Source: an uncultured Geminicoccaceae bacterium
GTDB lineage: Bacteria; Pseudomonadota; Alphaproteobacteria; Geminicoccales; Geminicoccaceae
Assembly (NCBI GenBank): GCA_964576715.1
Contig: CAZNWE010000004.1
Span: 13,681 to 77,680, forward strand
DNA length: 64,000 nt
Direction of reading: 5' to 3'
Shown piece by piece: positions 52,809-64,000 of the stretch; positions within the stretch are counted from its first letter, which is position 1, and every line of letters starts with the position of its first letter. The position numbers and the translations under genes were made by a program. Below the pieces are notes generated by a model. The model searched no databases. It had not been told where the DNA came from and saw only the letters and a list, made by a program, of their open reading frames with translations.

Positions 52809-53018
52809 ATGAAGAACCGCGGCGACCATCTCGAGATCGATACACAGCTTGCCAGCTTGCGCGCCGCACATCGTTCGCTCGACTCCCGGATCGAGCAACT
52901 TCAGGGCGAAGGCTTCGTCGACCAAGTGGCCCTGCAGCGGCTCAAGCGGCAAAAGCTGCTGTTGAAGGACAAGATAACCCAACTCGAGCATGACCGCCTC
53001 CCGGACATCATCGCCTGA
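52809..53018 (+). CDS. DUF465 (YdcH-like) small coiled-coil protein
   Basis: LASLRAAHRSLDSRIEQL...VALQRLKRQKLLLKDKITQLE. 69 aa. Paralogous in pattern to 50718..50924. Confidence 0.75.
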   Translation: MKNRGDHLEIDTQLASLRAAHRSLDSRIEQLQGEGFVDQVALQRLKRQKLLLKDKITQLEHDRLPDIIA

Positions 53019-53349
53019 GGACCTGCAGACATCCTGGCGGTGCCGGTGCCGACTGTCGCCGGATCGACGCACCATCCGGTCGTATGTCGGCCGGGGTGGA
53101 GATCGCGCTATGTCGCGGCCCGCCTCTGGTGGCCCGTGGTGCCGAAATCCACCACTGTCCGCTAGAGATTGACCGAGAGCTCGCAAGCGGGTGCTTTGCC
53201 GAGTACCCCGACTTGAGGCCACCTTGTGTCAAGGACTGGGTCAGCCGAGCTGTCTCATTTCGCGCGCGTGTTCCGCGACCTGATGCGCCAAATCAACATG
53301 AAACTGCGGCTCTCGTCTCACCTAGCTGATCTTGCACCGCAGCGTGCTG

Positions 53350-53988
53350 CTACTGGCTGACCCAGACAATCCTCGTTATCCAAGCGATGTCCCTTGCCGG
53401 AAGCGTAAGCTCCTGCTCCTCGCCGTCGCGCTCAACGATCGTGCATTGCTGCGCCGTTTTGCGTTTGAGCGTGCCGAAGCGCACCTCACCGTTTCTGCTC
53501 TTGAGCATTACGCGGTCATGTCGACGGACACTGCTCGACGGCGAGATCACGAGCAGAGACCCTGGCCGGCAAAAATCCTGATCGATATCTTTGTCGAGCT
53601 CGACAACGTAGGCGCGAGGATCGTCAATCGACGGAAACTCGCACTCCTCCCATTCGCCGAGTCCCGGGAACCCGGACTTGTCGAAGCTGTCCTCCGTGAT
53701 CTTCGACAAGCGAATCGATTTGAGCCTCTGCTCCGACAGCCGTGGCTGGGGTGACGGTGCCTCGTCAATCAACGTCACGAACTCGGCCATGCTGGTTTGT
53801 GTCGCCTCGAGAATCTTCGACAGGCTTTCCGTTCCCGGCCAGCGTTGCTTGCCGTCTTGCGTAACCCGCTTGCTCTTGTTGAAGGTCGTCGGGTCGAGGC
53901 CGGCCCGCTTGGCGAGGCCTGACGGTGAAAGGCCATTGCGCAAGGCGAGACGATCAACGCCGCGCCAAATCTGGTCGTGAGTCAGCAT
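53350..53988 (-). CDS. CI/LexA-like repressor (XRE-type HTH plus S24 peptidase-like C-terminal domain)
   Basis: N-terminal HTH LSPSGLAKRAGLDPTTFNKSKR. The C-terminal beta domain PGSLLVISPSSSVRRHDRVMLKSRNGEVRFGTLKRK aligns with the LexA/CI GDxxxV....VKRL core. Lower GC than its neighbours by eye. Confidence 0.78.
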   Translation of the reverse strand: MLTHDQIWRGVDRLALRNGLSPSGLAKRAGLDPTTFNKSKRVTQDGKQRWPGTESLSKILEATQTSMAEFVTLIDEAPSPQPRLSEQRLKSIRLSKITEDSFDKSGFPGLGEWEECEFPSIDDPRAYVVELDKDIDQDFCRPGSLLVISPSSSVRRHDRVMLKSRNGEVRFGTLKRKTAQQCTIVERDGEEQELTLPARDIAWITRIVWVSQ

Positions 53989-54052
53989 GGCTTCGCTTCC
54001 GCTGCGCTTCGTTGCACTTTTTGAGAATGTCTTACTATGCAGTGGACGTCAC

Positions 54053-54069
54053 TAGGTCTATATTCTTAG
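54053..54069 (+). promoter_or_regulatory. Copy 1 of a 17-nt motif TAGGTCTATATTCTTAG (promoter -10 / operator candidate), 20 nt upstream of the 54090 start
   Basis: Direct reading. 16 of 17 nt identical to 54470..54486. Contains TATATT. Confidence 0.45.
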
Positions 54070-54089
54070 AAAAAGGATGGAGTACGCGG

Positions 54090-54455
54090 ATGATGGTCAT
54101 TGTCGGCTTTCAGGGGCGGGTCAATGCTGGTGGCCTCGCCTGGCTGAAGAAGGGTTTTCGCCATTGCTTCGCCTACCAGCGGGTCGACGGCGGCTGGGTG
54201 CTATGTGATCCGCTCGGCGCCGGCCTGCTGCTTCGCCAAGCTCCCGCCTTGCCGGAGCGGGCGCTGCTCACGTCAATGGCAGCGCTCGGCGCGTCCGTCG
54301 TCGCCGTTCGACGGATGGACCAGGCCGGGCGTATGCCCTGGCTGCGGCCGATGACTTGCGTGGAAATCTGCAAGCGCGTGGTCGGCACGCAGGCGTTTTG
54401 GCTGTTCACACCCTACCAATTGTTCTGCGAACTGCTCGGTCGCCGGGAGGCTTGA
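54090..54455 (+). CDS. Hypothetical protein, first gene of the phage-like operon
   Basis: 121 aa. GGAG lies 9 nt upstream of ATG 54090. Coding-like composition. Conserved-looking His/Cys (GFRHCFAY, MTCVEICKR) but no family recognised. Confidence 0.5.
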   Translation: MMVIVGFQGRVNAGGLAWLKKGFRHCFAYQRVDGGWVLCDPLGAGLLLRQAPALPERALLTSMAALGASVVAVRRMDQAGRMPWLRPMTCVEICKRVVGTQAFWLFTPYQLFCELLGRREA

Positions 54456-54486
54456 CGCGACGAATGAAGTAGGTTTATATTCTTAG
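54452..54486 (+). promoter_or_regulatory. Sigma-70-like promoter (TTGACG-N17-TTATAT) containing copy 2 of the 17-nt motif TAGGTTTATATTCTTAG, upstream of the portal gene
   Basis: TTGACG at 54452..54457, 17-nt spacer, TTATAT at 54475..54480. The motif lies at 54470..54486. Confidence 0.45.
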
Positions 54487-54513
54487 TGTAGCACAACACG
54501 ATTGGATCGGTGC

Positions 54514-55983
54514 ATGACGGACCCGTCACTGCCAACGGTGTTTCGACACTTCGCCAATGCCCGCGAGCGCCGCCTGGCCTGGGAGCAACTTTGGCGTGAC
54601 TGCTACGCCTATGCCCTGCCGATGCGCGGCCATGGCCTGTCCCAGGCGACCTTCGCCGGCAGCAACCACGCCGAACGACTGTTCGATGGAACGGCTCCCG
54701 ATGCTGTAGAGCAGCTTGCGGCAAGCCTGCTTGCAGAACTCACGCCGCCGTGGTCGCGCTGGTTCGGGCTCAAGCCCGGCCAAGACGTCGACCCCCGTGA
54801 CATCGACGAGCTCGCACAAATCTTGGATGCAGCGGCGGTTCGCGTGCAGGGGCATTTCGACCGCTCGAACTTTGCCGTCGAAATCCATCAGTGCTTCCTC
54901 GATCTGGTGACGACCGGCACGGCTACCTTGCTGTTCGAAGAGGCGCCGGTGGGTTGCTCCTCGGCTTTCCGCTTCTCCGCCATCCCGGCTGCCGAGATCT
55001 TCATCGACGGCGACGTGAACGGAGGCATTGAGCGCTATTTCAGGGTTACTTCAGCGACCCTTTCGGAAGTCCGTCGACGTTTTTCCGGTTGCGCCGAGCT
55101 GGCCCTGATCGCGACCGATCCAAGCGCGTCTTCCGACTCGAAGCTGGAATTGCTCGAGGCCGTCCAGGCGCGCGGCCGGTCCTTCGACTATCAGGCCATC
55201 CTTCCTGTGCAGGGCGACGCCGTCCGGGCGCCGGTGCTGTTGGCCCAGGGCGCCTTCGAGCAGTCGCCGTTTCTAACCTTTCGCTGGATGAAGGGCACCG
55301 GGGAGCTCTACGGCCGTTCGCCGGTGATGACTGCCCTGCCGGACATCAAGACGGCCAACAAGGTGGTCGAGCTGGTCTTGAAAAATGCATCGATCGCGGC
55401 CACCGGAATTTGGCTGGCCGAAGACGATGGGGTCTTGAATCCCGCCAATATCCGGCTCGTGCCGGGAAGCATCATCCCAAAAGCGGCCGGTTCGTCCGGC
55501 CTGACCCCGCTGCAGGCCCCAGGTCGGTTCGACGTGTCCGAACTGGTGCTGAGCGACCTTCGCGCGCGCATCCGTCACACCCTGATGGCCGATCGCCTAG
55601 GCCAGGTGAACGATCGACGCATGACGGCGACCGAGGTGCTCGAGCGCAGTGCCGAAATGACCCGCCTGATCGGCGCGATCTATGGTCGCCTGCAGGCCGA
55701 GTTGCTGACGCCCCTGATGCAGCGGGCGCTCGCCATCTTGCGACGGCGTGGCGAGGTGCCGCCCGTGGTTCTCGATGGCACCATCGTCGAAGCCAATTAT
55801 CGTGCGCCTCTGGCCCGCGTTCAGGCACGCGAGGAGATCCGCAACACCCTGTTGTGGCTGGAGACCGTCGGCAAGCTCGGCGCCGATGCGGCCCAGCTGG
55901 TGGACCTCGCCGCCACCACGAGTTGGCTCGCCGAGACGCTCGGCGTGCCGCGCGAGCTCCTCGCGCGGACGCCGGCGGAGTGA
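54514..55983 (+). CDS. Phage portal (head-to-tail connector) protein, T7 gp8-like
   Basis: N-terminal RHFANARERRLAWEQLWRDCYAYALPMRG is the typical opening of Head-tail_con family portals. About 490 aa. First large gene of the module. An alternative TTG start lies at 54502. Confidence 0.75.
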   Translation: MTDPSLPTVFRHFANARERRLAWEQLWRDCYAYALPMRGHGLSQATFAGSNHAERLFDGTAPDAVEQLAASLLAELTPPWSRWFGLKPGQDVDPRDIDELAQILDAAAVRVQGHFDRSNFAVEIHQCFLDLVTTGTATLLFEEAPVGCSSAFRFSAIPAAEIFIDGDVNGGIERYFRVTSATLSEVRRRFSGCAELALIATDPSASSDSKLELLEAVQARGRSFDYQAILPVQGDAVRAPVLLAQGAFEQSPFLTFRWMKGTGELYGRSPVMTALPDIKTANKVVELVLKNASIAATGIWLAEDDGVLNPANIRLVPGSIIPKAAGSSGLTPLQAPGRFDVSELVLSDLRARIRHTLMADRLGQVNDRRMTATEVLERSAEMTRLIGAIYGRLQAELLTPLMQRALAILRRRGEVPPVVLDGTIVEANYRAPLARVQAREEIRNTLLWLETVGKLGADAAQLVDLAATTSWLAETLGVPRELLARTPAE

Positions 55984-56258
55984 TCACCGTGGAACGGCAA
56001 CCATACGAGGACGATCGAGACGTCGGCTGGGCTTGGTTCGCGAGCGACGGCGCGAGTCCACTGCATGACGACGATCTCACGAGTGCGATGGCGGCGTGTT
56101 TCGCCGGTCGTCATGGCGAGATCGTCATCCAGCACCTGCGCAACCTGTTCCTCGATCGCCGCGTGCCGCCGACCGCCTCGGACGCCGAGCTGCGCCATGT
56201 CGAGGGCCAGCGCTTCGCCATCGCCTACCTCCTCCGCCTAGCCCGTCCAAGAGGTTGA
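55980..56258 (+). CDS. Hypothetical phage-module protein (92 aa)
   Basis: GTG start overlapping the portal stop (GTGA). Non-shadow amino-acid composition. No family recognised. Confidence 0.45.
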   Translation: MITVERQPYEDDRDVGWAWFASDGASPLHDDDLTSAMAACFAGRHGEIVIQHLRNLFLDRRVPPTASDAELRHVEGQRFAIAYLLRLARPRG

Positions 56259-56260
56259 CC

Positions 56261-57121
56261 ATGCAAAGCCATAGCAGTGCCGCCAAGGCAGATCCCGAGC
56301 CTCTCGATATCGTGGCCGAGATCGTACCAATGCCAGCCAATGAGGACGAGCCGATGCCCGACTTGCGGCCCGACTTGCGGGAGGAGACGATCGCGAGCTC
56401 CGACCCGGTGGGCCTGACCGACCAGGAGAGCCTGACCGCCCGGCCGCCGGATGTGCCGGAGAAGTTCTGGGACGCCGCGACCGGCACCGTCCGTACCGAT
56501 GCCCTGCTCCGCTCTTATCTCGAACTCGAGCGCCGCCTCGGCCGGTCGGTCGCCAAGCCGGCCAACGACGATGACATCGAGGGCATCAATCGGCTCTTCG
56601 CTCTGCTCGGGCGGCCGGACGCTCCGGACGGCTACGATATTGCTGCTCCACATCCCCTGGTCGCCCCCGATCCCGAGCTCAATGCGCTGCTGCACGAAGC
56701 CGGCTTCACGCAACGCCAAGCCCAGCTGGTCTACGAGCTCGCGGCCGATCGGCTGCTGCCCGTGCTCGAGGAAGCGGCGGGTGAGCTCGAAGCGACCCGG
56801 CAGATCGACCGCCTGCAGCAGCATTTCGGCGGGCCCGAGGCTTGGCGGACCATTGCGGCGCAGATCAAGGCCTACGCCGAAGCCAATCTGCCCGACGAGC
56901 TGCACAGCGCGCTTGCCGGCAGCTACGAAGGCGTCTTGGCCCTTCACGAGATGATGCGCAAGGCCGAGCCCGATATCGTTGGCCAGGCCGGCTCCGGCCA
57001 ACTGGCCGTGACCGAGGACAGCCTCCGCGAGTTGATTCGCGACCCGCGCTATTGGCGCGACCGCGATCCCGAGATCGTTCAGCGGGTGACTGCGGGCTAC
57101 CGCAACCTCTATCCGAGCTGA
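56261..57121 (+). CDS. Putative capsid scaffolding/assembly protein
   Basis: 286 aa, acidic and helical (EPLDIVAEIVPMPANEDEPMPDL, LLRSYLELERRLG). Sits between portal and capsid as T7 gp9 does. GAGG Shine-Dalgarno upstream. Confidence 0.5.
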   Translation: MQSHSSAAKADPEPLDIVAEIVPMPANEDEPMPDLRPDLREETIASSDPVGLTDQESLTARPPDVPEKFWDAATGTVRTDALLRSYLELERRLGRSVAKPANDDDIEGINRLFALLGRPDAPDGYDIAAPHPLVAPDPELNALLHEAGFTQRQAQLVYELAADRLLPVLEEAAGELEATRQIDRLQQHFGGPEAWRTIAAQIKAYAEANLPDELHSALAGSYEGVLALHEMMRKAEPDIVGQAGSGQLAVTEDSLRELIRDPRYWRDRDPEIVQRVTAGYRNLYPS

Positions 57122-57252
57122 CCTGCTGACGGGCGATCACTGCGGAGAACCGCGCGGCGGCCCGCCTGATCGACGACCAAACCCGCCCGAGCTTACGGCC
57201 CGCGAGGACAACCAGCGGCTCCCTTTATCGCGACAAGCAAACAAGGTGCGCG

Positions 57253-58071
57253 ATGTCTATCAACATAGATCAAGCTTTCTCGAAGCAGTTCGAACGGGAA
57301 GTCCACGAGGCTTACCAGCGCCAGGGCTCCAAGTTGCGGGCCACCGTTCGCGTCAAGAACGGCGTGCGCGGCAGCTCGACGACCTTTCAGACGGTCGGCA
57401 AGGGTGCCGCCGCCACCAAGGCGCGGCACGGCATCGTACCGGTCATGAATGTCGAATTCAGCGCGGTCGAGGCGGTGCTCGTCGACTACTACGCCGGTGA
57501 ATGGGTCGATCAGCTCGACGAGCTGAAGACCAATCTCGACGAGCGGCAGGTCCTGGCCAACGCCGGCGCCTTTGCGCTCGGTCGCAAGACCGACGAACTC
57601 ATCCTCGCCGCCTTGAAGAACGCCACCCAGGTCGCCGGCGAGGCGACCAACGGCCTGACCAAGGAGAAGGTCCTGCAGGCCTTCGAGATGCTCGGGGCTG
57701 CCGACGTGCCCGACGACGGCCAGCGTTACGCGGTCATCGGCTGGAAGCAGTGGTCGGATCTCTTGAACGTCGCCGAATTCGCCAATGCGGAGTTCGTCGG
57801 CGACGATCAACTGCCGTGGCGAGGGACCCAGGCCAAGGTCTGGCTCGGCACGCTCTGGATGCCGCATTCGGGCCTGCCGGGCGAAGACGGCGTGCGCCAC
57901 TGCTTTTGGTACCACAAGAGCGCCGTAGGCCACGCCATTGGTCAGGATGTGAAATCCGACATCACCTGGCACGGTGACCGTGCCGCCCACTTCATCTCCA
58001 ACTCGATGTCGCAGGGTGCCGTCCTGATCGACGACGACGGTGTCGTCGCCATGCCCTGCCAGGAGAGCTGA
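57253..58071 (+). CDS. Putative major capsid protein
   Basis: 272 aa. The position after the scaffold-like gene and the pattern MSINIDQAFSKQFEREVHEAYQRQGSKLR...FQTVGKG are typical of small podoviral coat proteins. Needs profile confirmation. Confidence 0.62.
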   Translation: MSINIDQAFSKQFEREVHEAYQRQGSKLRATVRVKNGVRGSSTTFQTVGKGAAATKARHGIVPVMNVEFSAVEAVLVDYYAGEWVDQLDELKTNLDERQVLANAGAFALGRKTDELILAALKNATQVAGEATNGLTKEKVLQAFEMLGAADVPDDGQRYAVIGWKQWSDLLNVAEFANAEFVGDDQLPWRGTQAKVWLGTLWMPHSGLPGEDGVRHCFWYHKSAVGHAIGQDVKSDITWHGDRAAHFISNSMSQGAVLIDDDGVVAMPCQES

Positions 58072-58073
58072 CA

Positions 58074-58343
58074 ATGGCTTATGAATCCAGTGGTCTCAGC
58101 GCCATCTCCTACGCCAACGGCTTCACCCTTTGGCATTACCGAACCAAAGACCTGATCGCCGATGTGGACAATGCCGGCTACTTCAATACCGCGAGCAAGA
58201 TGCTGCGGGTCGGTGACTTCATGTTCGTCAATGCCGGCCTCGACGACATGCCGACGCACGGCGTCGTCGTCGTGCTGAGCAACGAGAACGGTCTCGTCGA
58301 CATCAGCAACGTGACGGCATTCGGCGCCATCAACACCGACTAG
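58074..58343 (+). CDS. Hypothetical small protein (head decoration/adaptor candidate)
   Basis: 89 aa, 2 nt after the capsid stop. Coding-like composition. Confidence 0.5.
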   Translation: MAYESSGLSAISYANGFTLWHYRTKDLIADVDNAGYFNTASKMLRVGDFMFVNAGLDDMPTHGVVVVLSNENGLVDISNVTAFGAINTD

Positions 58344-58387
58344 TCGATCGAGCAGGTATTTCGCTTCAGCCAATGTTGCGAGATACC

Positions 58388-58417
58388 GGCGGACCGGTGG
58401 CCTGCCACCGGTCCGCC
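58388..58417 (+). terminator. Perfect 13-bp GC-rich hairpin downstream of the capsid region (attenuator/terminator candidate)
   Basis: GGCGGACCGGTGG-cctg-CCACCGGTCCGCC, 45 nt after the stop at 58343. No U-tract. Confidence 0.5.
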
Positions 58418-58487
58418 CCGCTCGGCGAGCGTCGTGCAACGCGCCCGCTCGCCGATCTTCAGATGCCAGCCAGAAGCGAACCGCACC

Positions 58488-59057
58488 ATGACCCTCTCCG
58501 ATGTCGAGATCTGCTCGGTGGCACTCGTCAAGATCGGGGCGAACGGCATCGTCTCGTTCGTCGACGATATGCTCGAGGCCGAAGTCGCGAGCCGTCTCTA
58601 CGAGGTGACACTTCGCGGTCTCATCACCAGCCATCCCTGGCACTTCACGCTGGCCGAAGCCGAACTGGAACCCATCGAAGAGCCGCTTCAGACCGGCTTC
58701 GCCAACGGCTTCGAGCTGCCCGGCGACCAGCTGCGGATCATCTCCGCCGGCGCCGGTCATCGGTCGCGCGGCCTCGATTACCGGGTCGCCGGCGATCGCC
58801 TGTACTGCAACAGCGCCAGGGTCGTGCTCAGCTTCCAGAGGCGACCGGCGACCGCAACGTTTCCCGCCTTCTTCGTCCAGGCCCTGGTCGCGCGACTCGC
58901 CGCCGAGTTCTGCCTGCCGCTCACCGAGGGCACCAGTCGGGCGGATGCGCTCTTCAAGCTGGCCACGGCCGAACTCAAGATTGCACGCCTGATCGACAGC
59001 CAGCAGGCGACGCCGCGTGCGGTCGAGGACTTCACCCTGATCGCGGCGCGCAGCTGA
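58488..59057 (+). CDS. Tail tubular protein A-like (T7 gp11-like)
   Basis: 189 aa, comparable to T7 gp11 at about 196 aa. The N-terminus MTLSDVEICSVALVKIGANGIVSFVDD follows the gp11-family opening pattern. Immediately precedes the gp12-like gene. Confidence 0.58.
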   Translation: MTLSDVEICSVALVKIGANGIVSFVDDMLEAEVASRLYEVTLRGLITSHPWHFTLAEAELEPIEEPLQTGFANGFELPGDQLRIISAGAGHRSRGLDYRVAGDRLYCNSARVVLSFQRRPATATFPAFFVQALVARLAAEFCLPLTEGTSRADALFKLATAELKIARLIDSQQATPRAVEDFTLIAARS

Positions 59058-61000
59058 TGACTAGGATCATCCAGACCAAGAGCAGCTTCACCTCGGGCGA
59101 GATCGATCCGGCACTCTATGGTCGCATCGATCTGCGCGCCTACGAAGACGGCGCTGCGACCTTGCGGAACGTATTGGTCCAGCGCACGGGCGGGGTCACC
59201 CGACGGCCGGGGACCGCGTTTGTCGCCATGGTGCCGAGCGGCGCGCGGCTGTTCCCCTACGATCAAGGCGCCATTCATGACCTGCTCGTCTTCGGCGACT
59301 ACGAAGCGCACATCGTCACCGACGGGGCACACCGGCAAACAGTCGACGGGCTCCCCTGGTCGATCGACGAGGTTGCGCAGATCGACGTAACGCTTGTCGA
59401 CGACGCAGTGCTCGTTTGCCATCCGTCTTATGAGCCGCGTCTTCTCGAGCGCGGGATCGACACGCAGTGGCGTCATTCGAAGCTCGCTTACGCTAGGTTG
59501 AGCACCGCCGACGCGGACGAGCGCCGCGCCCTGCCGTTCGCCAGATACGCGCCAGCAGATCTCAGCTTGCAGGTAGAGCGGCTCGAGCAAGGCGATGATC
59601 CCACGGCACAGGACACGGCTGGCATCGCAGTCAAGCTCTTGAGCTTCCACCCGCTGTTCGATCGCGGCTACACGCAAGGAACGGTTTTTCGCGTCAAAGG
59701 ACGCCAGGTTCGCCTCACCAACGTTGTGCCCGACCAGGACGGCAGGCTCGCCTGGGGCGTCACCCTGGAACCACTGGTCGACGAGCTCGCGACGTTCGAC
59801 TGGGACGAGCAGGCGTTCTCCGATGCGCATGGTTGGCCGATTGCGGCTGCCATGCACCAAAACCGCCTGGTGTTCGGCGGCTGCCGCGATCGCGCCGATT
59901 TCATCTGGTTTTCGAAGTCGGGCCGTCCCTTCGACTTCGACATGGGCGACGGCGAGGACGACGCGGCCATTTCGTTTCGCATCGTCGCCGAGCGACGACA
60001 CGAAATTCGCCACTTGTTTTCCGGCCGCGTTCTCCAGGTCTTCACCACGGCCGGTGAATGGACGATCGGCGGTTTCCCGTTGACGCCGAGGACGGCCCGG
60101 GTCGAGTTGCAGACGCGCGTCGGCTCGCTGCCCGAGCGGCAGATAGCGCCCGTCGATGTCGACGGTGCCACGCTCTTTGTCGGCAGCTCGGGTCGTGATT
60201 TGCGGGAGTTCCTGTTCACCGAGACCGAGCAGGCCTACCAGGCGGCCGACATCGCCATCCTGTCGCGGCACCTGATGCAGGAACCGGTCGACATGGCGTT
60301 CGATCAGCCGCGGCGGGTGTTCTGGATCGCGCGCGCCGATGGCCGGGCCTGTGCCGTCACCATCGACCGCAACAGCAATATCGTGGCTTGGACCCTGCAG
60401 GCGACGGATGGCGTCATTCGGGCGCTGACGATCCATGATCGCGCATTGGTGATGCTGGTCGATCGCGCGGCGGGGCTCTCTATCGAGCGGCTCGACGAAC
60501 AGACGACCCTCGACTCGCAACGGCGCCTGACCACGCCGGAGCCGACCGCCGCGTGGTCGGGCCTCGAGGCGCTGAACGGCCAGACCTATGTCGTGATCGC
60601 CGATGGCGAGACGCTGGGCGAGCAGTCGATCGAGGCTGGCCAGCTGCAGTTGCCTTCGCCGGCAAGCGTGCTCGAGCTCGGGCTGGGTTTCGAGCATACC
60701 ATAGCCGGCCTGCCGATCACCGGCGGCAGCGGGCGCGGTGTGGCCGCTGACACGCCTTACCGGCCGGTGCGGATCAGCCTGCGGCTCGGCCCGTCGAAAG
60801 ATCTGCTGGTCGATACCGGTGCTGGCCCGCGCGTGGTCAGCGTCGGCCGGCATGCCGGAATGAACGACATCTTTGATGTCGGCATCAGGGCCATGGGCTG
60901 GCGCCGGGGGACGGCAATGCCGCCCTGGCGTGTGGCGCAGGCGCAACCTGGCCCGTTTCAACTCCTCTCGGTAACTGTCGAAGCAAAGGTGAACGGCTGA
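59057..61000 (+). CDS. Tail tubular protein B-like (T7 gp12-like)
   Basis: 647 aa. N-terminal SSFTSGEIDPALYGRIDLRAYEDGAATLRNVLVQRTGGVTRRPGTAFV matches the conserved gp12-family opening. TGATG overlap with the gp11-like gene. Confidence 0.62.
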   Translation: MTRIIQTKSSFTSGEIDPALYGRIDLRAYEDGAATLRNVLVQRTGGVTRRPGTAFVAMVPSGARLFPYDQGAIHDLLVFGDYEAHIVTDGAHRQTVDGLPWSIDEVAQIDVTLVDDAVLVCHPSYEPRLLERGIDTQWRHSKLAYARLSTADADERRALPFARYAPADLSLQVERLEQGDDPTAQDTAGIAVKLLSFHPLFDRGYTQGTVFRVKGRQVRLTNVVPDQDGRLAWGVTLEPLVDELATFDWDEQAFSDAHGWPIAAAMHQNRLVFGGCRDRADFIWFSKSGRPFDFDMGDGEDDAAISFRIVAERRHEIRHLFSGRVLQVFTTAGEWTIGGFPLTPRTARVELQTRVGSLPERQIAPVDVDGATLFVGSSGRDLREFLFTETEQAYQAADIAILSRHLMQEPVDMAFDQPRRVFWIARADGRACAVTIDRNSNIVAWTLQATDGVIRALTIHDRALVMLVDRAAGLSIERLDEQTTLDSQRRLTTPEPTAAWSGLEALNGQTYVVIADGETLGEQSIEAGQLQLPSPASVLELGLGFEHTIAGLPITGGSGRGVAADTPYRPVRISLRLGPSKDLLVDTGAGPRVVSVGRHAGMNDIFDVGIRAMGWRRGTAMPPWRVAQAQPGPFQLLSVTVEAKVNG

Positions 61001-61419
61001 TGGGCGGAACGAGCAGTCTAGCGAGCTTGGGCCTCAACCTGGCGCTCGGCCAGGAAGCGGCCAGGCGCGAGAACAAGGACCTCGAGAAGGAGCGCGATCG
61101 GCAGATCGCCTCCATCATGCGTGATAATCGCGAGGCCGAACGGCAGCAGGCCACCGCCTTGCGACGCCGACAGGCCAGTGAGCGGGCGAGAGCCGGGGCC
61201 ACCGGCACGGCAACGACCGGCGGCTCGCTCGATGCCATTCTCCGCGGGCTCGAGCGAGACGCGGCCTTCGACCGCGCGGCCAAGCGTGACGCCACCAACG
61301 CCCGCGTGCAGCAGATCAACGACAGCTTCGGCACCCGGCGTCGCAACAATCTCCTGACCGCCTCCAACCGGCTCTTGGGCAGCAGTTCCGCGACCGTCGG
61401 CCGCAGCCTGCTCGGCTGA
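61000..61419 (+). CDS. Hypothetical Arg/Glu/Ala-rich protein (small terminase or internal virion protein candidate)
   Basis: 139 aa. ATGA overlap with the upstream gene. Coiled-coil-like EAARRENKDLEKERDRQIASIMRDNREAERQQ. It lies directly before the large terminase gene. Confidence 0.45.
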   Translation: MGGTSSLASLGLNLALGQEAARRENKDLEKERDRQIASIMRDNREAERQQATALRRRQASERARAGATGTATTGGSLDAILRGLERDAAFDRAAKRDATNARVQQINDSFGTRRRNNLLTASNRLLGSSSATVGRSLLG

Positions 61420-61430
61420 CCGGTCGATCG

Positions 61431-62972
61431 ATGACGGAGGGCGAGGACAGCAGCACGGTACCGTTCGGCCCGGGTTGCCGGGAGAGCGCAGTCGGCTTTC
61501 TCGGTTTCACCCAGTTCGTCATCGTCTGGAACAAGCTGCAAGGACACGGCACCCCGGCGCTCCACCTCACCATCTCGCAATGGCTCTACGAGCGGTGGCT
61601 CGCCGGGGACCGCCGGCTGCTGCTCATGGTGTTTCGCGATGCCGGCAAGTCGACCCTGGTCGGTCTCTTCGCGGCCTGGCTGCTCACCGGCAACCCCAAT
61701 CTCCGCATCCTGATCATCGCTGCCGAGCAGATGCTCGCCAACAAGATGAGCCGGAACATTCGGCGGATCATCGAGCTGCACCCGGCGGCAAGCCACCTGC
61801 TCCGGCATCGTGGCGACAGCTGGGCCGCCGATCAATTCACGGTTCGGCGCAGCCGCAGCCAGCGCGACCCATCAGTGCTGGCGCGCGGCCTCGCCGGCAA
61901 TTTTACCGGCACCCGTGCGGACATCGTCATTTGCGACGATGTCGAGGTGCCGAACACCTGCGGCACGACGGCCGCCCGCGACGACTTGCGTCAGCGCCTG
62001 ACCGAGCTTAACTTCGTGCTTGTGCCGTCCGGCCTGCAGCTCTTCATTGGCACACCACACAGCTACTATTCGATCTACGCGGACCGGCCGCGGGCCGAGA
62101 TCGGCGAAGAACGGGCCTTTCTCGATTCTTTCCGGCGATTATGCCTGCCGTTGGTCGGCTCCGGCGGTGCCAGCGCCTGGCCCGAACGCTTCCCAACGGA
62201 AATCATCGAGGACCTGCGGCGCAGCGCCGGACCCCAGAAGTTCCGCAGCCAGATGATGCTGGAGCCGATACCACCAAATGCGCTAACGCTCGATCCCGAC
62301 CGGCTGCTCGTCTATGCGGGCGAGTTGCGCAGCCACTGGGCCCACAATCGGCTCATCCTGTCGCTTGACGAGGCACCAATGGTCTCGAGCGTCTGCTGGT
62401 GGGACCCGGCCTACGGCCGCCCCGGCCGCGGCGATCGCAGCGCCATTGCTGTCGTCATGATGGATCGCTCGGGCCACTACTGGCTGCACGCGCTCCGCTA
62501 CCTGCAATTCGCCGTCGAGCGCCTCGACGAAGTCGACGAGGCGACACAGCTGGTGCGGCAGGCCATCGACTTCGCCCGCTCGGCACAGCAAATGCGTTTG
62601 TTCATCGAAACGAACGGTATCGGCCGCTTCCTGCCGGCCCTTGTCCGCCGTGAGCTCGGCCGGGCCGGCGGGCAGCTGGCGCTCGTCGAGCGACACTCGA
62701 GCAAGAGCAAGACCGACCGCATCCTGAACGCTCTCGATCCGATCCTGGCCGCCGGGCATCTGCACATCCATCAATCGGTCCTGCAGTCCGGGTTCATCGA
62801 AGAGATGCGCGAATGGTCGCCAGGCACCGCCGCGCTCGACGATGGCCTCGATGCCGTGAGCAACGCCATCCTCGAACAGCCGGTGCGACTACCGAGAACC
62901 ACCGGCACTGCCGGCGGATCATCATCTCTTGCAACCAGCAGCTTCTTGGCCGATGCGACATTCGCCGTGTGA
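61431..62972 (+). CDS. Phage terminase large subunit
   Basis: Walker A-like FRDAGKSTL, Walker B-like ADIVICDDVE and a C-terminal RNaseH-like nuclease region (AIAVVMMD, FIETNGIG, DDGLDAVS). 513 aa. Confidence 0.78.
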   Translation: MTEGEDSSTVPFGPGCRESAVGFLGFTQFVIVWNKLQGHGTPALHLTISQWLYERWLAGDRRLLLMVFRDAGKSTLVGLFAAWLLTGNPNLRILIIAAEQMLANKMSRNIRRIIELHPAASHLLRHRGDSWAADQFTVRRSRSQRDPSVLARGLAGNFTGTRADIVICDDVEVPNTCGTTAARDDLRQRLTELNFVLVPSGLQLFIGTPHSYYSIYADRPRAEIGEERAFLDSFRRLCLPLVGSGGASAWPERFPTEIIEDLRRSAGPQKFRSQMMLEPIPPNALTLDPDRLLVYAGELRSHWAHNRLILSLDEAPMVSSVCWWDPAYGRPGRGDRSAIAVVMMDRSGHYWLHALRYLQFAVERLDEVDEATQLVRQAIDFARSAQQMRLFIETNGIGRFLPALVRRELGRAGGQLALVERHSSKSKTDRILNALDPILAAGHLHIHQSVLQSGFIEEMREWSPGTAALDDGLDAVSNAILEQPVRLPRTTGTAGGSSSLATSSFLADATFAV

Positions 62973-63055
62973 AGCCCGGAGCATCGGGGACGTCACGCAA
63001 CCGACCGGGCAGGTCAACCGACATCTCGGCAGAGGTCCGTGCCCGCCACGCTCAC

Positions 63056-63289
63056 ATGTCTCTGGATACGACCTTGAGCGCCACCGCCACGCTGCTGCTG
63101 CTTGCTCTGGGTCTGGCTCTCGGCGGCTGGGCTGCCTGGCAGGAACGTCGACCGCGCGGGCTCGGGGATCTGCCGCTCATGCCACCGATCCCGGTCTTGA
63201 TCGTCGGGGTGCTGATCGTCCTGGTGAGCCTGGCACACTTGCTCACCATCTGGACCGGCATGCCGTTCAAGAGCCGATTTCTGCCGTGA
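63056..63289 (+). CDS. Small two-TM membrane protein (holin-like topology, unproven)
   Basis: 77 aa. TM1 ATLLLLALGLALGGWAAW and TM2 IPVLIVGVLIVLVSLAHLL with a short basic tail. Last + strand gene after the terminase. Confidence 0.42.
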   Translation: MSLDTTLSATATLLLLALGLALGGWAAWQERRPRGLGDLPLMPPIPVLIVGVLIVLVSLAHLLTIWTGMPFKSRFLP

Positions 63290-64000
63290 GCGCCAGCAAC
63301 TGATCGAGCAGACCCGCAATCGCCGCGCGTGCCTCCAGCTTTTCGACCAGACGGGGCGCAATGCCATCGATGCCGACCGCCGCACCCATGAGGGCGCCCA
63401 CGCATGCCGCACGGCTTGCATTGTCACCGCCGGCGCGCACGGTTTCGAGGACGGCGGTCGTGAAGTCGCCAGAATGCCTGATGCAGGCATGCAGGATGCT
63501 TGGAAAGGTGCACGGCAGGTAGCAGGAACGACCCACGAGCCCTGTCGCATCGATCACGGCATTGTCGATCATCGACAGGGCGTCACCCAAGCGGATCTTC
63601 ACGAGGTCCGCAGCAGGTCCCTGTTGCGCGCGGCAGCCGCTGTCGATAGCGCTCATCAGATCGGTGCCGTGCAACGCCGCATCCAGGATCCGCCCAAAAG
63701 CCTGGTTGTGGGCGACCGCCTCGGCATTGTCCTGCGTGACCCGGACAAAGCGCTCGATCACCGCATCACGATCCGATCGCCCGGCGTGCAGCACCGCGAT
63801 CGGCGCGACCCGGCACATCGACACGGTTTGAAAATCGTCGGCGCCGCTCTGGAACGCGAAGTTCGGATCGTCGAGATGCGGCTTCGCATTGTCGATGGTC
63901 AGGCGTGTGGGCTTGTCGCGATAGCCGGCGTACCCCGCATCGAAAGCCGCGACGAAGCGACGACCAAACCGCCTTTCGTCGAAGCCGCGATCGGTGACGA
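63267..64000 (-). CDS. ADP-ribosylglycohydrolase-family protein (C-terminal part; N-terminus beyond the window's right edge)
   Basis: C-terminal metal-binding motif AGGDNASRAACVGALMGAAVG (GGDTDT-like). The reading frame stays open upstream of the listed GTG at 63824, to position 64000, with no stop. Confidence 0.72.
   Translation of the reverse strand, partial: VTDRGFDERRFGRRFVAAFDAGYAGYRDKPTRLTIDNAKPHLDDPNFAFQSGADDFQTVSMCRVAPIAVLHAGRSDRDAVIERFVRVTQDNAEAVAHNQAFGRILDAALHGTDLMSAIDSGCRAQQGPAADLVKIRLGDALSMIDNAVIDATGLVGRSCYLPCTFPSILHACIRHSGDFTTAVLETVRAGGDNASRAACVGALMGAAVGIDGIAPRLVEKLEARAAIAGLLDQLLALTAEIGS

Follow-up and report, generated by a model that had tools for sequence, protein, structure and literature searches.

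Few independent lineages of gene transfer agents (GTAs) are known, and the sole one studied in the alphaproteobacteria is the siphovirus-like RcGTA family (Rhodogtaviriformidae), a phage-derived cluster of head, tail and terminase genes which is fixed in alphaproteobacterial chromosomes and contains no replication or integration genes. The large RcGTA clusters are reported to be absent from Geminicoccaceae-, Rhodospirillales- and Micavibrio-like lineages (PMC5721377). These lineages carry the module described here, a string of phage-type head, tail and packaging genes in the region 53350-63289 of a 64,000-nucleotide stretch of contig CAZNWE010000004.1 (hereafter the window) from an uncultured Geminicoccaceae bacterium. 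The module probably represents (with a probability of roughly 0.7) a chromosomally fixed, vertically inherited remnant of a podovirus of the LME-1/Carin-1/T7 type, maintained by selection across several alphaproteobacterial orders as a candidate GTA-like element, or viriform. The literature searched describes neither the conserved module nor any podoviral or T7-type GTA.

Comparison with described phages, gene transfer agents and satellites

By sequence, the portal, capsid, adaptor and nozzle proteins of the module are closest to those of phages of the LME-1, Carin-1, HTVC010P and Hodr type, which also share its order of portal, small gene, scaffold, capsid, small gene, adaptor, nozzle and internal protein. 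In LME-1, whose gene order is that of the module, the capsid gene is followed immediately by a small gene for a head-decoration protein (PMC12407071). The closest cultured phage is the pelagiphage Hodr, with 47% identity in the capsid and 32% in the portal. LME-1, Carin-1 and Hodr-type phages, which are T7-like without sequence similarity to T7, differ from the module in being self-propagating, 30-35 kb in size and equipped with replication and early genes, fibres and lysis functions. In the module, the large terminase (TerL) gene is distal, whereas it precedes the portal gene in the closest phage relatives, large internal proteins and an early/replication region are lacking, and identity to the phage proteins is 30-47%. 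The phage-collection genomes with this capsid family are all 31-35 kb, while LME-1 measures 30.4 kb and has a T=7 head. Hodr and three long IMG/VR contigs encode, in this order, TerL, a homologue of o121 (the first gene of the module operon) and the portal, as well as proteins of 700-1400 aa after the nozzle which are presumably the gp15/gp16 equivalents.

With RcGTA the module shares the attributes given above, together with vertical inheritance, purifying selection, a host-like composition and the possibility that accessory genes lie outside the main cluster, and the holin used by relatives of the module belongs to the Pfam family that takes its name from the RcGTA holin (PF11351). The structural genes differ, those of RcGTA being of the HK97-type siphovirus kind with a protease and a tape measure, whereas those of the module are podoviral and non-homologous. 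No RcGTA-type homologue occurs among the Pfam, PHROG and NCBIfam matches of the window, GTA_holin_3TM being shared in the relatives only. RcGTA is regulated by CtrA/GafA, whereas the repressor of the module is CI/LexA-like, encoded in cis and provided with operators of its own. At the gene level the module shows what characterises a GTA or viriform, namely no genes for self-replication, excision or integration, vertical inheritance and purifying selection.

PBSX of Bacillus subtilis is a chromosomally fixed defective prophage that gives rise to SOS-inducible phage-like particles packaging host DNA. The module resembles it in having no replication or integration genes and, in related loci, in an SOS-cleavable-type repressor and a lysis cassette. 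Unlike the module, PBSX is contractile-tailed, belongs to the Firmicutes and consists of unrelated genes, and the locus in the lineage of the window has neither the self-cleavage residues nor lysis genes. The features of an intact temperate prophage are likewise missing: there is no integrase or excisionase, no att repeats and no replication module, and a lysis cassette is found in relatives only. Satellites of the capsid-forming phage-inducible chromosomal island (cf-PICI) type are also small loci with their own capsid, portal and terminase; they are, unlike the module, mobile and tail-less, and encode an integrase, a replication initiator/primase and regulators for exploiting a helper. An adaptor and a nozzle are part of the module itself, and no integrase or primase recurs in its relatives.

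Gene content of the module

The proteins of the window were compared with Pfam, PHROG and NCBIfam profiles and with the sequences of solved structures, and its DNA with Rfam. The module (9.6 kb; G+C of the window ~65%) consists of one minus-strand repressor-like gene and ten co-directional plus-strand genes in the order o121, portal, Bbp19-like, scaffold, capsid, 89-aa gene, adaptor, nozzle, gp14-like and TerL. The portal or head-tail connector (54514..55983, 489 aa, with an alternative TTG start at 54502) matches PF12236 (7e-123) and, among solved relatives, LME-1 best (2e-33), Carin-1 (1e-19) and T7 (~5e-12). The T7-type scaffolding protein (56261..57121, 286 aa) matches PF05396 (T7 capsid assembly, 1.3e-12) and phrog_3742, and the major capsid protein (57253..58071, 272 aa) matches PF19821 (1e-78) and the major capsid protein of LME-1 (9eg4, 8e-28), so that it is predicted to belong to the HK97-fold major capsid class of a T7-type virion module. 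The tail tube is represented by a gp11-like adaptor or tail tubular protein A (58488..59057, 189 aa; phrog_394 'tail', 2e-37; phrog_9239 'tail tubular', 4e-15), which matches the Carin-1 connector weakly (0.046), and a gp12-like nozzle or tail tubular protein B (59057..61000, 647 aa; phrog_376, 2e-102), which matches the tail nozzles of Carin-1 (8ck1, 1e-40) and LME-1 (1e-19). The last gene encodes a T7-type TerL (61431..62972, 513 aa; NCBIfam termin_lrg_T7, 1.5e-108, above cut-off), with a match of 2e-23 to gp19 of T7 (4bij). The features of a T7-type virion which are present are thus the portal, the scaffold and capsid 3' of it, the adaptor/nozzle pair and the large terminase.

Three small genes complete the structural set. 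Between portal and scaffold lies a gene for a small Bbp19-like protein (55989..56258; PF25181, 6e-12), of which an alternative GTG start at 55980 overlaps the portal stop codon. The 89-aa protein encoded after the capsid gene (58074..58343; phrog_18004, 2e-18) is a putative head-decoration protein by position only: its gene lies where LME-1 encodes the decoration protein, and it has homologues 3' of the capsid gene in phage relatives, and no solved relative was found by sequence search. A 139-aa protein (61000..61419) is a candidate gp14-like internal virion protein, with matches to PF24072 (T7_gp14, 4e-5, below cut-off), phrog_805 (2.5e-4) and phrog_418 ('internal virion protein') and a position that is conserved in relatives. 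The complete gp14/gp15/gp16 set was not found, this weak gp14-like protein being the only part of it, and large internal proteins are absent from the window and from the family members. No small terminase was recognisable among the window proteins in the Pfam, PHROG and NCBIfam comparisons, and the Rfam scan of the whole window gave no match.

A preliminary description of the region, made from its sequence and translated open reading frames (ORFs), had proposed a portal, a capsid, gp11- and gp12-like proteins and a TerL, all of which are backed by the profile and structure-database matches. What it took for a single acidic scaffold-like protein comprises two genes, the Bbp19-like gene and the true scaffold gene, and its core gene list left the conserved o121 and the 89-aa gene unnamed. 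Its statement that ejection genes are missing holds for gp15 and gp16 and fails for gp14, for which there is the weak candidate. The single, co-directional and tightly coupled gene string which it described is borne out by the junctions between 55980 and 59059, which comprise GTGA at 55980, gaps of 2 nt at 56258/56261 and 58071/58074, and TGATG at 59055-59059; at 61000 the junction reads TGATG and not ATGA. A portal identical to that of the window was also called on Logan contigs, and independent gene calls on two metagenome contigs with an identical portal yield the same ten genes.

Distribution and synteny in relatives

One genome per bacterial species was scanned, and 80 of the 106 loci detected were retained; ORFs in high-GC loci were called by a frame score (G+C at third minus second codon positions, GC3-GC2). 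Portal relatives number thousands, many of them on megabase contigs. Portal identity to the window is 60-88% in the Geminicoccaceae, ~57% in Tagaea-like bacteria and ~50-55% in Micavibrio-, Magnetovibrio-, Marivibrio- and Pacificispira-like bacteria. The window genes from the repressor to TerL were found in the same order in most of the sufficiently long loci (tblastn against the 80 species-level genomes), and 80 'viral' contigs of IMG/VR, 4-16 kb long, are fragments of this module, several beginning exactly at the repressor. Uninterrupted single matches were obtained for the portal in 78/78 loci, the capsid in 57/61, the adaptor in 54/55, the nozzle in 49/52 and TerL in 39/41, the exceptions being mostly in long-read metagenome-assembled genomes (MAGs). 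In one locus (L074:13112-14644) the capsid and TerL matches abut inside a single 510-aa ORF.

The module is flanked by housekeeping genes which are syntenic within lineages and different between lineages. The four closest relatives of the window share both flanks (80-90% amino-acid identity; Der GTPase, BamB, ThpR), and the right flank is common to them and the window. A class-I lysyl-tRNA synthetase (LysRS) flanks twelve loci of the Tagaea group, while purC, NAD kinase (NADK) and pyrE flank 13-18 loci of the Micavibrio group, in which the host proteins are 42-60% identical at the extremes. A phosphoribosyltransferase gene beside the repressor in nine loci, considered as ComF, is pyrE according to NCBIfam. 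The left flank of the window, which includes glk, differs from that of its closest relatives.

Selection and inheritance

The ratio of nonsynonymous to synonymous substitution rates (dN/dS, Nei-Gojobori) is 0.03-0.3 in all eleven genes across twelve pairs of loci, including pairs at dS 0.13-0.5. The capsid gene has the lowest values of the module for both dN/dS (0.03-0.10) and dS; the ratios are ~0.08-0.18 for TerL, 0.06-0.21 for the repressor and ~0.2-0.3 for the Bbp19-like gene. In the pair L001/L003, dS of the flanking genes is 0.83-1.4, compared with 0.46-1.25 for most module genes and an outlying 2.6 for o121. The pairwise identity of the adjacent host gene is correlated with that of the portal and capsid, with Spearman rho of 0.88 and 0.96 in the LysRS group and 0.34-0.65 in the purC and NADK groups; as the pairs are non-independent, p-values for these coefficients are not meaningful.

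Because the flanks are syntenic within lineages, the dS of the module is about that of its flanks and host and module identities are correlated, vertical inheritance is indicated, and vertical inheritance with selective maintenance is much the most economical reading. The preliminary description had offered two options, the last intact block of a decaying prophage and a maintained, repressor-controlled particle-forming locus, and had named dN/dS below 1 and frameshifts in orthologous copies as the signs by which to tell them apart. Every gene lies at 0.03-0.3 and the frames are intact in nearly all loci, and conservation, synteny, dS and dN/dS together favour the second option and not the first.

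Repressor and control elements

The divergent repressor-like gene (53350..53988, minus strand, 212 aa) encodes an N-terminal helix-turn-helix (HTH) domain (weak HTH_26, Cro/C1-type) and an S24/LexA-like C-terminus, and is present in 77 related loci. In 31 loci the LexA/CI-type GxSMxP serine, the lysine and the AQAG site are kept. In the alignment the repressor of the window has DKDIDQDF in place of GxSMxP, and the catalytic serine, the lysine and the AG cleavage site are absent. The loss of these residues extends to all Geminicoccaceae and, as a separate event, to the genus Micavibrio proper (lost in L001-L031, L046, L048, L056, L061, L063 and L065; contrasted with L027-L051 and others), whereas the N-terminal HTH remains highly conserved there and the operator palindrome is conserved as well. 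The divergent CI/LexA-like repressor of the preliminary description is accordingly confirmed in its orientation, HTH and S24-like domain, and in the lineage of the window it has neither the catalytic residues nor the cleavage site. Judged from the alignment, this loss would be compatible with a shift of particle production to host control.

A 17-nt motif, TAGGTCTATATTCTTAG, which had been singled out in the preliminary description, has exactly two copies in the window (0 expected by chance). The first, operator-like copy (54053..54069, plus strand) lies in the divergent control region between the repressor and o121, and the second (54470-54486) lies 5' of the portal gene, over the -10 element of a sigma-70-type promoter (54452..54486, plus strand; TTGACG, 18 nt, TATATT) which is the sole strong promoter-like match of this type in 53000-63500. 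The motif fits the family consensus, a perfect 16-bp palindrome, TAGGAATATATTCCTA. In both intergenic regions of related loci a TTGAC(A) box is followed after ~17 nt by the palindrome TAGGAATATATTCCTA, centred on the -10 element, and this arrangement is conserved in loci of the Geminicoccaceae and the Tagaea group. In 74 loci, with up to four mismatches allowed, 109 copies of the palindrome lie within the two control regions (56.6 kb in total) and 39 in the remaining 1.26 Mb, a 62-fold enrichment.

A second element separates the head genes from the tail genes. The 89-aa gene and the adaptor gene are 144 nt apart, and this gap contains a GC-rich stem-loop (58388..58417, plus strand; 13-bp stem, -29.1 kcal/mol), with compensatory changes at 6/11 stem pairs in ten close relatives, and a conserved CCAGCCAGAAGCGA box is located just 5' of the adaptor start codon. 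The main terminator of T7 is found at the equivalent place between head and tail genes, and the hairpin may have a role in setting the head-to-tail expression ratio.

The o121 family

The first gene of the operon, o121 (54090..54455, plus strand, 121 aa), has no function assigned by family and is kept in at least 75 related loci. It has no Pfam, PHROG or NCBIfam match, and a Foldseek search of the PDB with its AlphaFold2 model (mean predicted local distance difference test score, pLDDT, 79.5) gave no significant fold match; the weak matches are mostly cysteine peptidases or amidases. The residues H25, C26, D40, C90 and E92 are invariant, and o121 is possibly a small papain-like Cys/His enzyme. 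Its family comprises 1594 unannotated clusters at 50% identity (E<=1e-3). A role as a GTA-specific regulator was dropped because true phage relatives encode o121 homologues between TerL and the portal (L154:6071-6808, L155:570-1001, L157:5339-5767 and L160:6302-6787), and the family may be one of small, uncharacterised enzymes belonging to podoviral head modules.

Longer loci in relatives and losses in the Geminicoccaceae

Outside the Geminicoccaceae the loci are longer, a layout regarded as ancestral, and run from the repressor through cl11, o121, a 90-aa gene starting with MG, the portal, Bbp19-like and scaffold genes and onwards to TerL and lysis genes. The 141-aa gene cl11, found after the repressor in 51 loci, belongs to no known family; the idea that it is a displaced small terminase is unsupported, no homologue occurring in phage relatives. 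A PilZ gene on the other strand is often located 3' of the scaffold gene and before the capsid gene. In 43-46 loci the gp14-like and TerL genes are separated by a gene for a fibre or a pectate-lyase-like spike, whose N-terminal domain is conserved and weakly similar to that of T7 fibres, and a profile of this domain, compared with 5.8 billion proteins, detected in-module fibres only, many of them split by frameshifts in long-read MAGs. A small transmembrane (TM) protein (28 loci), a SleB-like cell-wall hydrolase (16 loci) and a GTA_holin_3TM holin (PF11351, 19 loci) are encoded 3' of TerL in these longer loci. All Geminicoccaceae loci, including that of the window, end at TerL, which is followed by unrelated host genes.

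In a few lineages a spike-like gene is located elsewhere, either between the scaffold and capsid genes or upstream of the repressor. Three hot-spring Geminicoccaceae MAGs (L023:5720-8635, L029:5721-8604 and L031:5727-8601, minus strand) encode a 787-aa pectate-lyase-like spike and a 116-127-aa protein upstream of the repressor on the opposite strand, and the N-terminus of this spike is unlike the T7-like fibre anchor found elsewhere. The scaffold/capsid junction is an insertion hot spot (e.g. L064:12526-18428, L097:3236-9654, L136:948-7423, L138:4595-9206 and L026:12618-16186). It holds an opposite-strand PilZ-domain gene in ~20 loci of the Micavibrio group, and elsewhere beta-helix/pectate-lyase-like proteins or 3-6.5 kb of unrelated genes, coding for example for an ODP metallo-beta-lactamase, a PG_binding_3 protein and large proteins without a family. 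In one Geminicoccaceae isolate an 876-aa P4-type primase/helicase-like protein, recognised by reading the sequence, is encoded directly upstream of the repressor (L022:5632-8262, minus strand), and it may belong to a separate island inserted beside the module.

Flanking genes of the module in the window

The left flank in the window comprises a FemAB-like gene, a DUF2390 gene, glk and a DUF465-like ORF (52809-53018), and the right flank a 77-aa membrane protein, the ADP-ribosylglycohydrolase and a glyoxalase. The housekeeping character of the flanks in the preliminary description is upheld for glk and the ADP-ribosylglycohydrolase; the DUF465-like ORF is recognised by eye from its sequence, with no profile match obtained. 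The 77-aa protein encoded 3' of TerL (63056..63289, plus strand), with two TM segments by eye, is of uncertain module membership. Among the related loci only the closest (L003-L006) have it, along with the ADP-ribosylglycohydrolase flank, and it has no family match and no homology to the small TM lysis-cassette protein that relatives encode at this place. Two Logan contigs from independent metagenome assemblies (L161 and L162; SRR7048221 and SRR7048223) carry an identical module and both break inside the repressor at the same base, matching the window from ~53874 onward. Because these breaks coincide and the left flank of the window is not common to its closest relatives, strain-level variation or rearrangement is suggested at the left border.

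Interpretation of the module

The conserved architecture allows a mechanism to be proposed for the maintained podovirus remnant. The divergent HTH repressor would bind the 16-bp palindrome over the -10 elements of the o121 and portal promoters and hold the operon silent. In related lineages with the Ser-Lys dyad and the Ala-Gly site the repressor would be inactivated by RecA-stimulated self-cleavage; since these residues are gone in the lineage of the window, derepression there would have to follow another, host-side signal. The portal, scaffold, capsid and 89-aa proteins would then build a procapsid, with the hairpin possibly setting the ratio of head to tail expression. The T7-type TerL would fill the heads, most likely with chromosomal DNA because a small terminase is not recognisable and functions for excision and replication are missing, and homology suggests that the adaptor, nozzle and gp14-like protein would close them. 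Fibre and lysis functions may be supplied from elsewhere, or the particles may be released and used differently.

Several observations weigh against a domesticated, GTA-like element. The regulator is a phage-type CI/LexA-like repressor and not a factor of a host regulon, the locus of the relatives holds everything that a virion needs apart from replication and integration, and purifying selection and intact genes are equally expected of a functional prophage. Unlike those of classical GTAs, the capsid belongs to a family of 30-35 kb phages, and the head could hold the whole 10-15 kb locus. In the window itself no homologues of the fibre, holin, lysin, PilZ, cl11 or cl14 genes were found across the 64 kb (tblastn), and its left flank is unlike that of its closest relatives. 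A P4-type primase-like gene stands beside the repressor, although in one locus only. Most carriers are MAGs, and ~7 of ~62 informative loci (L054, L058, L059, L062, L066, L074 and L076) appear truncated, with capsid to nozzle absent from the ~8-9 kb downstream of the scaffold or with internal deletions. Two cultured species, Marivibrio halodurans and Pacificispira spongiicola, have such loci, which indicates that the module is not maintained everywhere.

A more specific form of the GTA-like reading can be put forward tentatively, at somewhat less than even odds. The module would be the first genetically defined podovirus-type GTA, the product of an ancient domestication, independent of that of RcGTA, across deep-branching alphaproteobacteria. 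Its heads, of the 30-35 kb type, would package the unexcised chromosome and move tens of kb, either at random or in a gradient from the locus resembling lateral transduction. In the Geminicoccaceae the repressor would no longer be subject to SOS self-cleavage, and the genes for fibre and lysis would have left the locus, paralleling the dispersed 'genome' of RcGTA.

It is rather unlikely, though not negligibly so, that the domesticated module serves a purpose other than DNA transfer, as PBSX-like particles for killing or altruistic lysis, in the release of DNA or protein for biofilms, or in interference with incoming related phages. Capsid and terminase would then be kept without any productive delivery of DNA. 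The selection and inheritance data fit such a use equally well. In the lineage of the window, neither the locus nor the surrounding 64 kb encodes a fibre, a holin or a lysin, gp15/gp16-type ejection proteins occur in no family member, and the SOS-type repressor of the relatives resembles that of defective prophages such as PBSX. The strong constraint on the portal, TerL, adaptor and nozzle would, however, be hard to explain without DNA packaging and an exit channel, and 43-46 related loci have kept a fibre or spike for receptor binding, the N-terminal anchor of which is conserved and T7-like.

It is improbable that the module is a minimal temperate phage or satellite (10-15 kb) capable of its own transmission, with unrecognised or borrowed integration and replication functions and repeated entry into the same chromosomal sites. 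Such an element would account for the intact autocleavage residues of the CI-like repressor in 31 loci, the full set of virion and lysis genes in the Tagaea and Micavibrio groups and the classification of the fragments as viral in IMG/VR. Flanks vary between lineages, the left one even between the window and its nearest relatives; a P4-type primase lies beside one locus, and integration or replication functions could be hidden in o121, cl11, cl14 or the Bbp19-like gene. The first of these is, however, an ordinary head-module gene of phage relatives. The Pfam, PHROG and NCBIfam searches detected no integrase, replication, fibre or lysis genes in 53350-63289, the tRNA search of the window was negative, and no direct or inverted repeats sought across the module borders bracket the block, in line with the absences (the small terminase among them) noted in the preliminary description. 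Among the recurrent families in 265 flanking ORFs of 75 loci there is no integrase, recombinase, transposase or replication family, although the two Pfam scans cover the 25 most frequent families each and sporadic integrases could escape notice, a point which again tells against a fixed locus. Against 72,556 plasmids there was no DNA match to the module, and the sole protein match was LME-1. The module occupies the same neighbourhood in genomes whose flanking host proteins are 42-60% identical, diverges together with its flanks and has a dS equal to theirs. Its codon usage is fully host-like, as the preliminary description had judged by eye: relative synonymous codon usage (RSCU) is correlated with that of the host genes in the window at r=0.98, equal to the value between one half of the host genes and the other.

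A neutrally decaying prophage remnant still intact by chance, for which the absence of most phage functions and the few truncated loci might be cited, is rejected as next to impossible on the dN/dS of 0.03-0.3 in all genes with dS up to saturation, the intact frames in nearly all loci, a gene order conserved at ~50% portal identity and the conserved operator and promoter.

Significance for the alphaproteobacteria

Mitomycin-inducible particles containing ~10 kb of random host DNA have been described in Azospirillum lipoferum, and their genes have never been firmly identified (PMC3899980). The module might account for these particles, although this is a lead only and nothing links the two. Complete modules are found in the cultured Micavibrio aeruginosavorus HCB189 and Benzoatithermus flavus SYSU G07066, which makes experiments possible. 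The former has a full locus including a spike (NZ_CP195303.1, ~1.424-1.446 Mb), and the latter has the stripped type. Virus-prediction pipelines file the module loci as viral (80 IMG/VR entries), which inflates prophage counts.

The family forms a graded series, from loci with a complete virion, lysis genes and an SOS-cleavable repressor to a stripped eleven-gene core with a dead cleavage site, which makes the transition from prophage to GTA testable by comparison. Should the module prove to be a domesticated particle locus, the domestication of phage particles would be recurrent within a single bacterial class and short-tailed virions could be co-opted as well. The same end state, with replication and integration lost, fibre and lysis genes dispersed and control rewired, would then have been reached twice.

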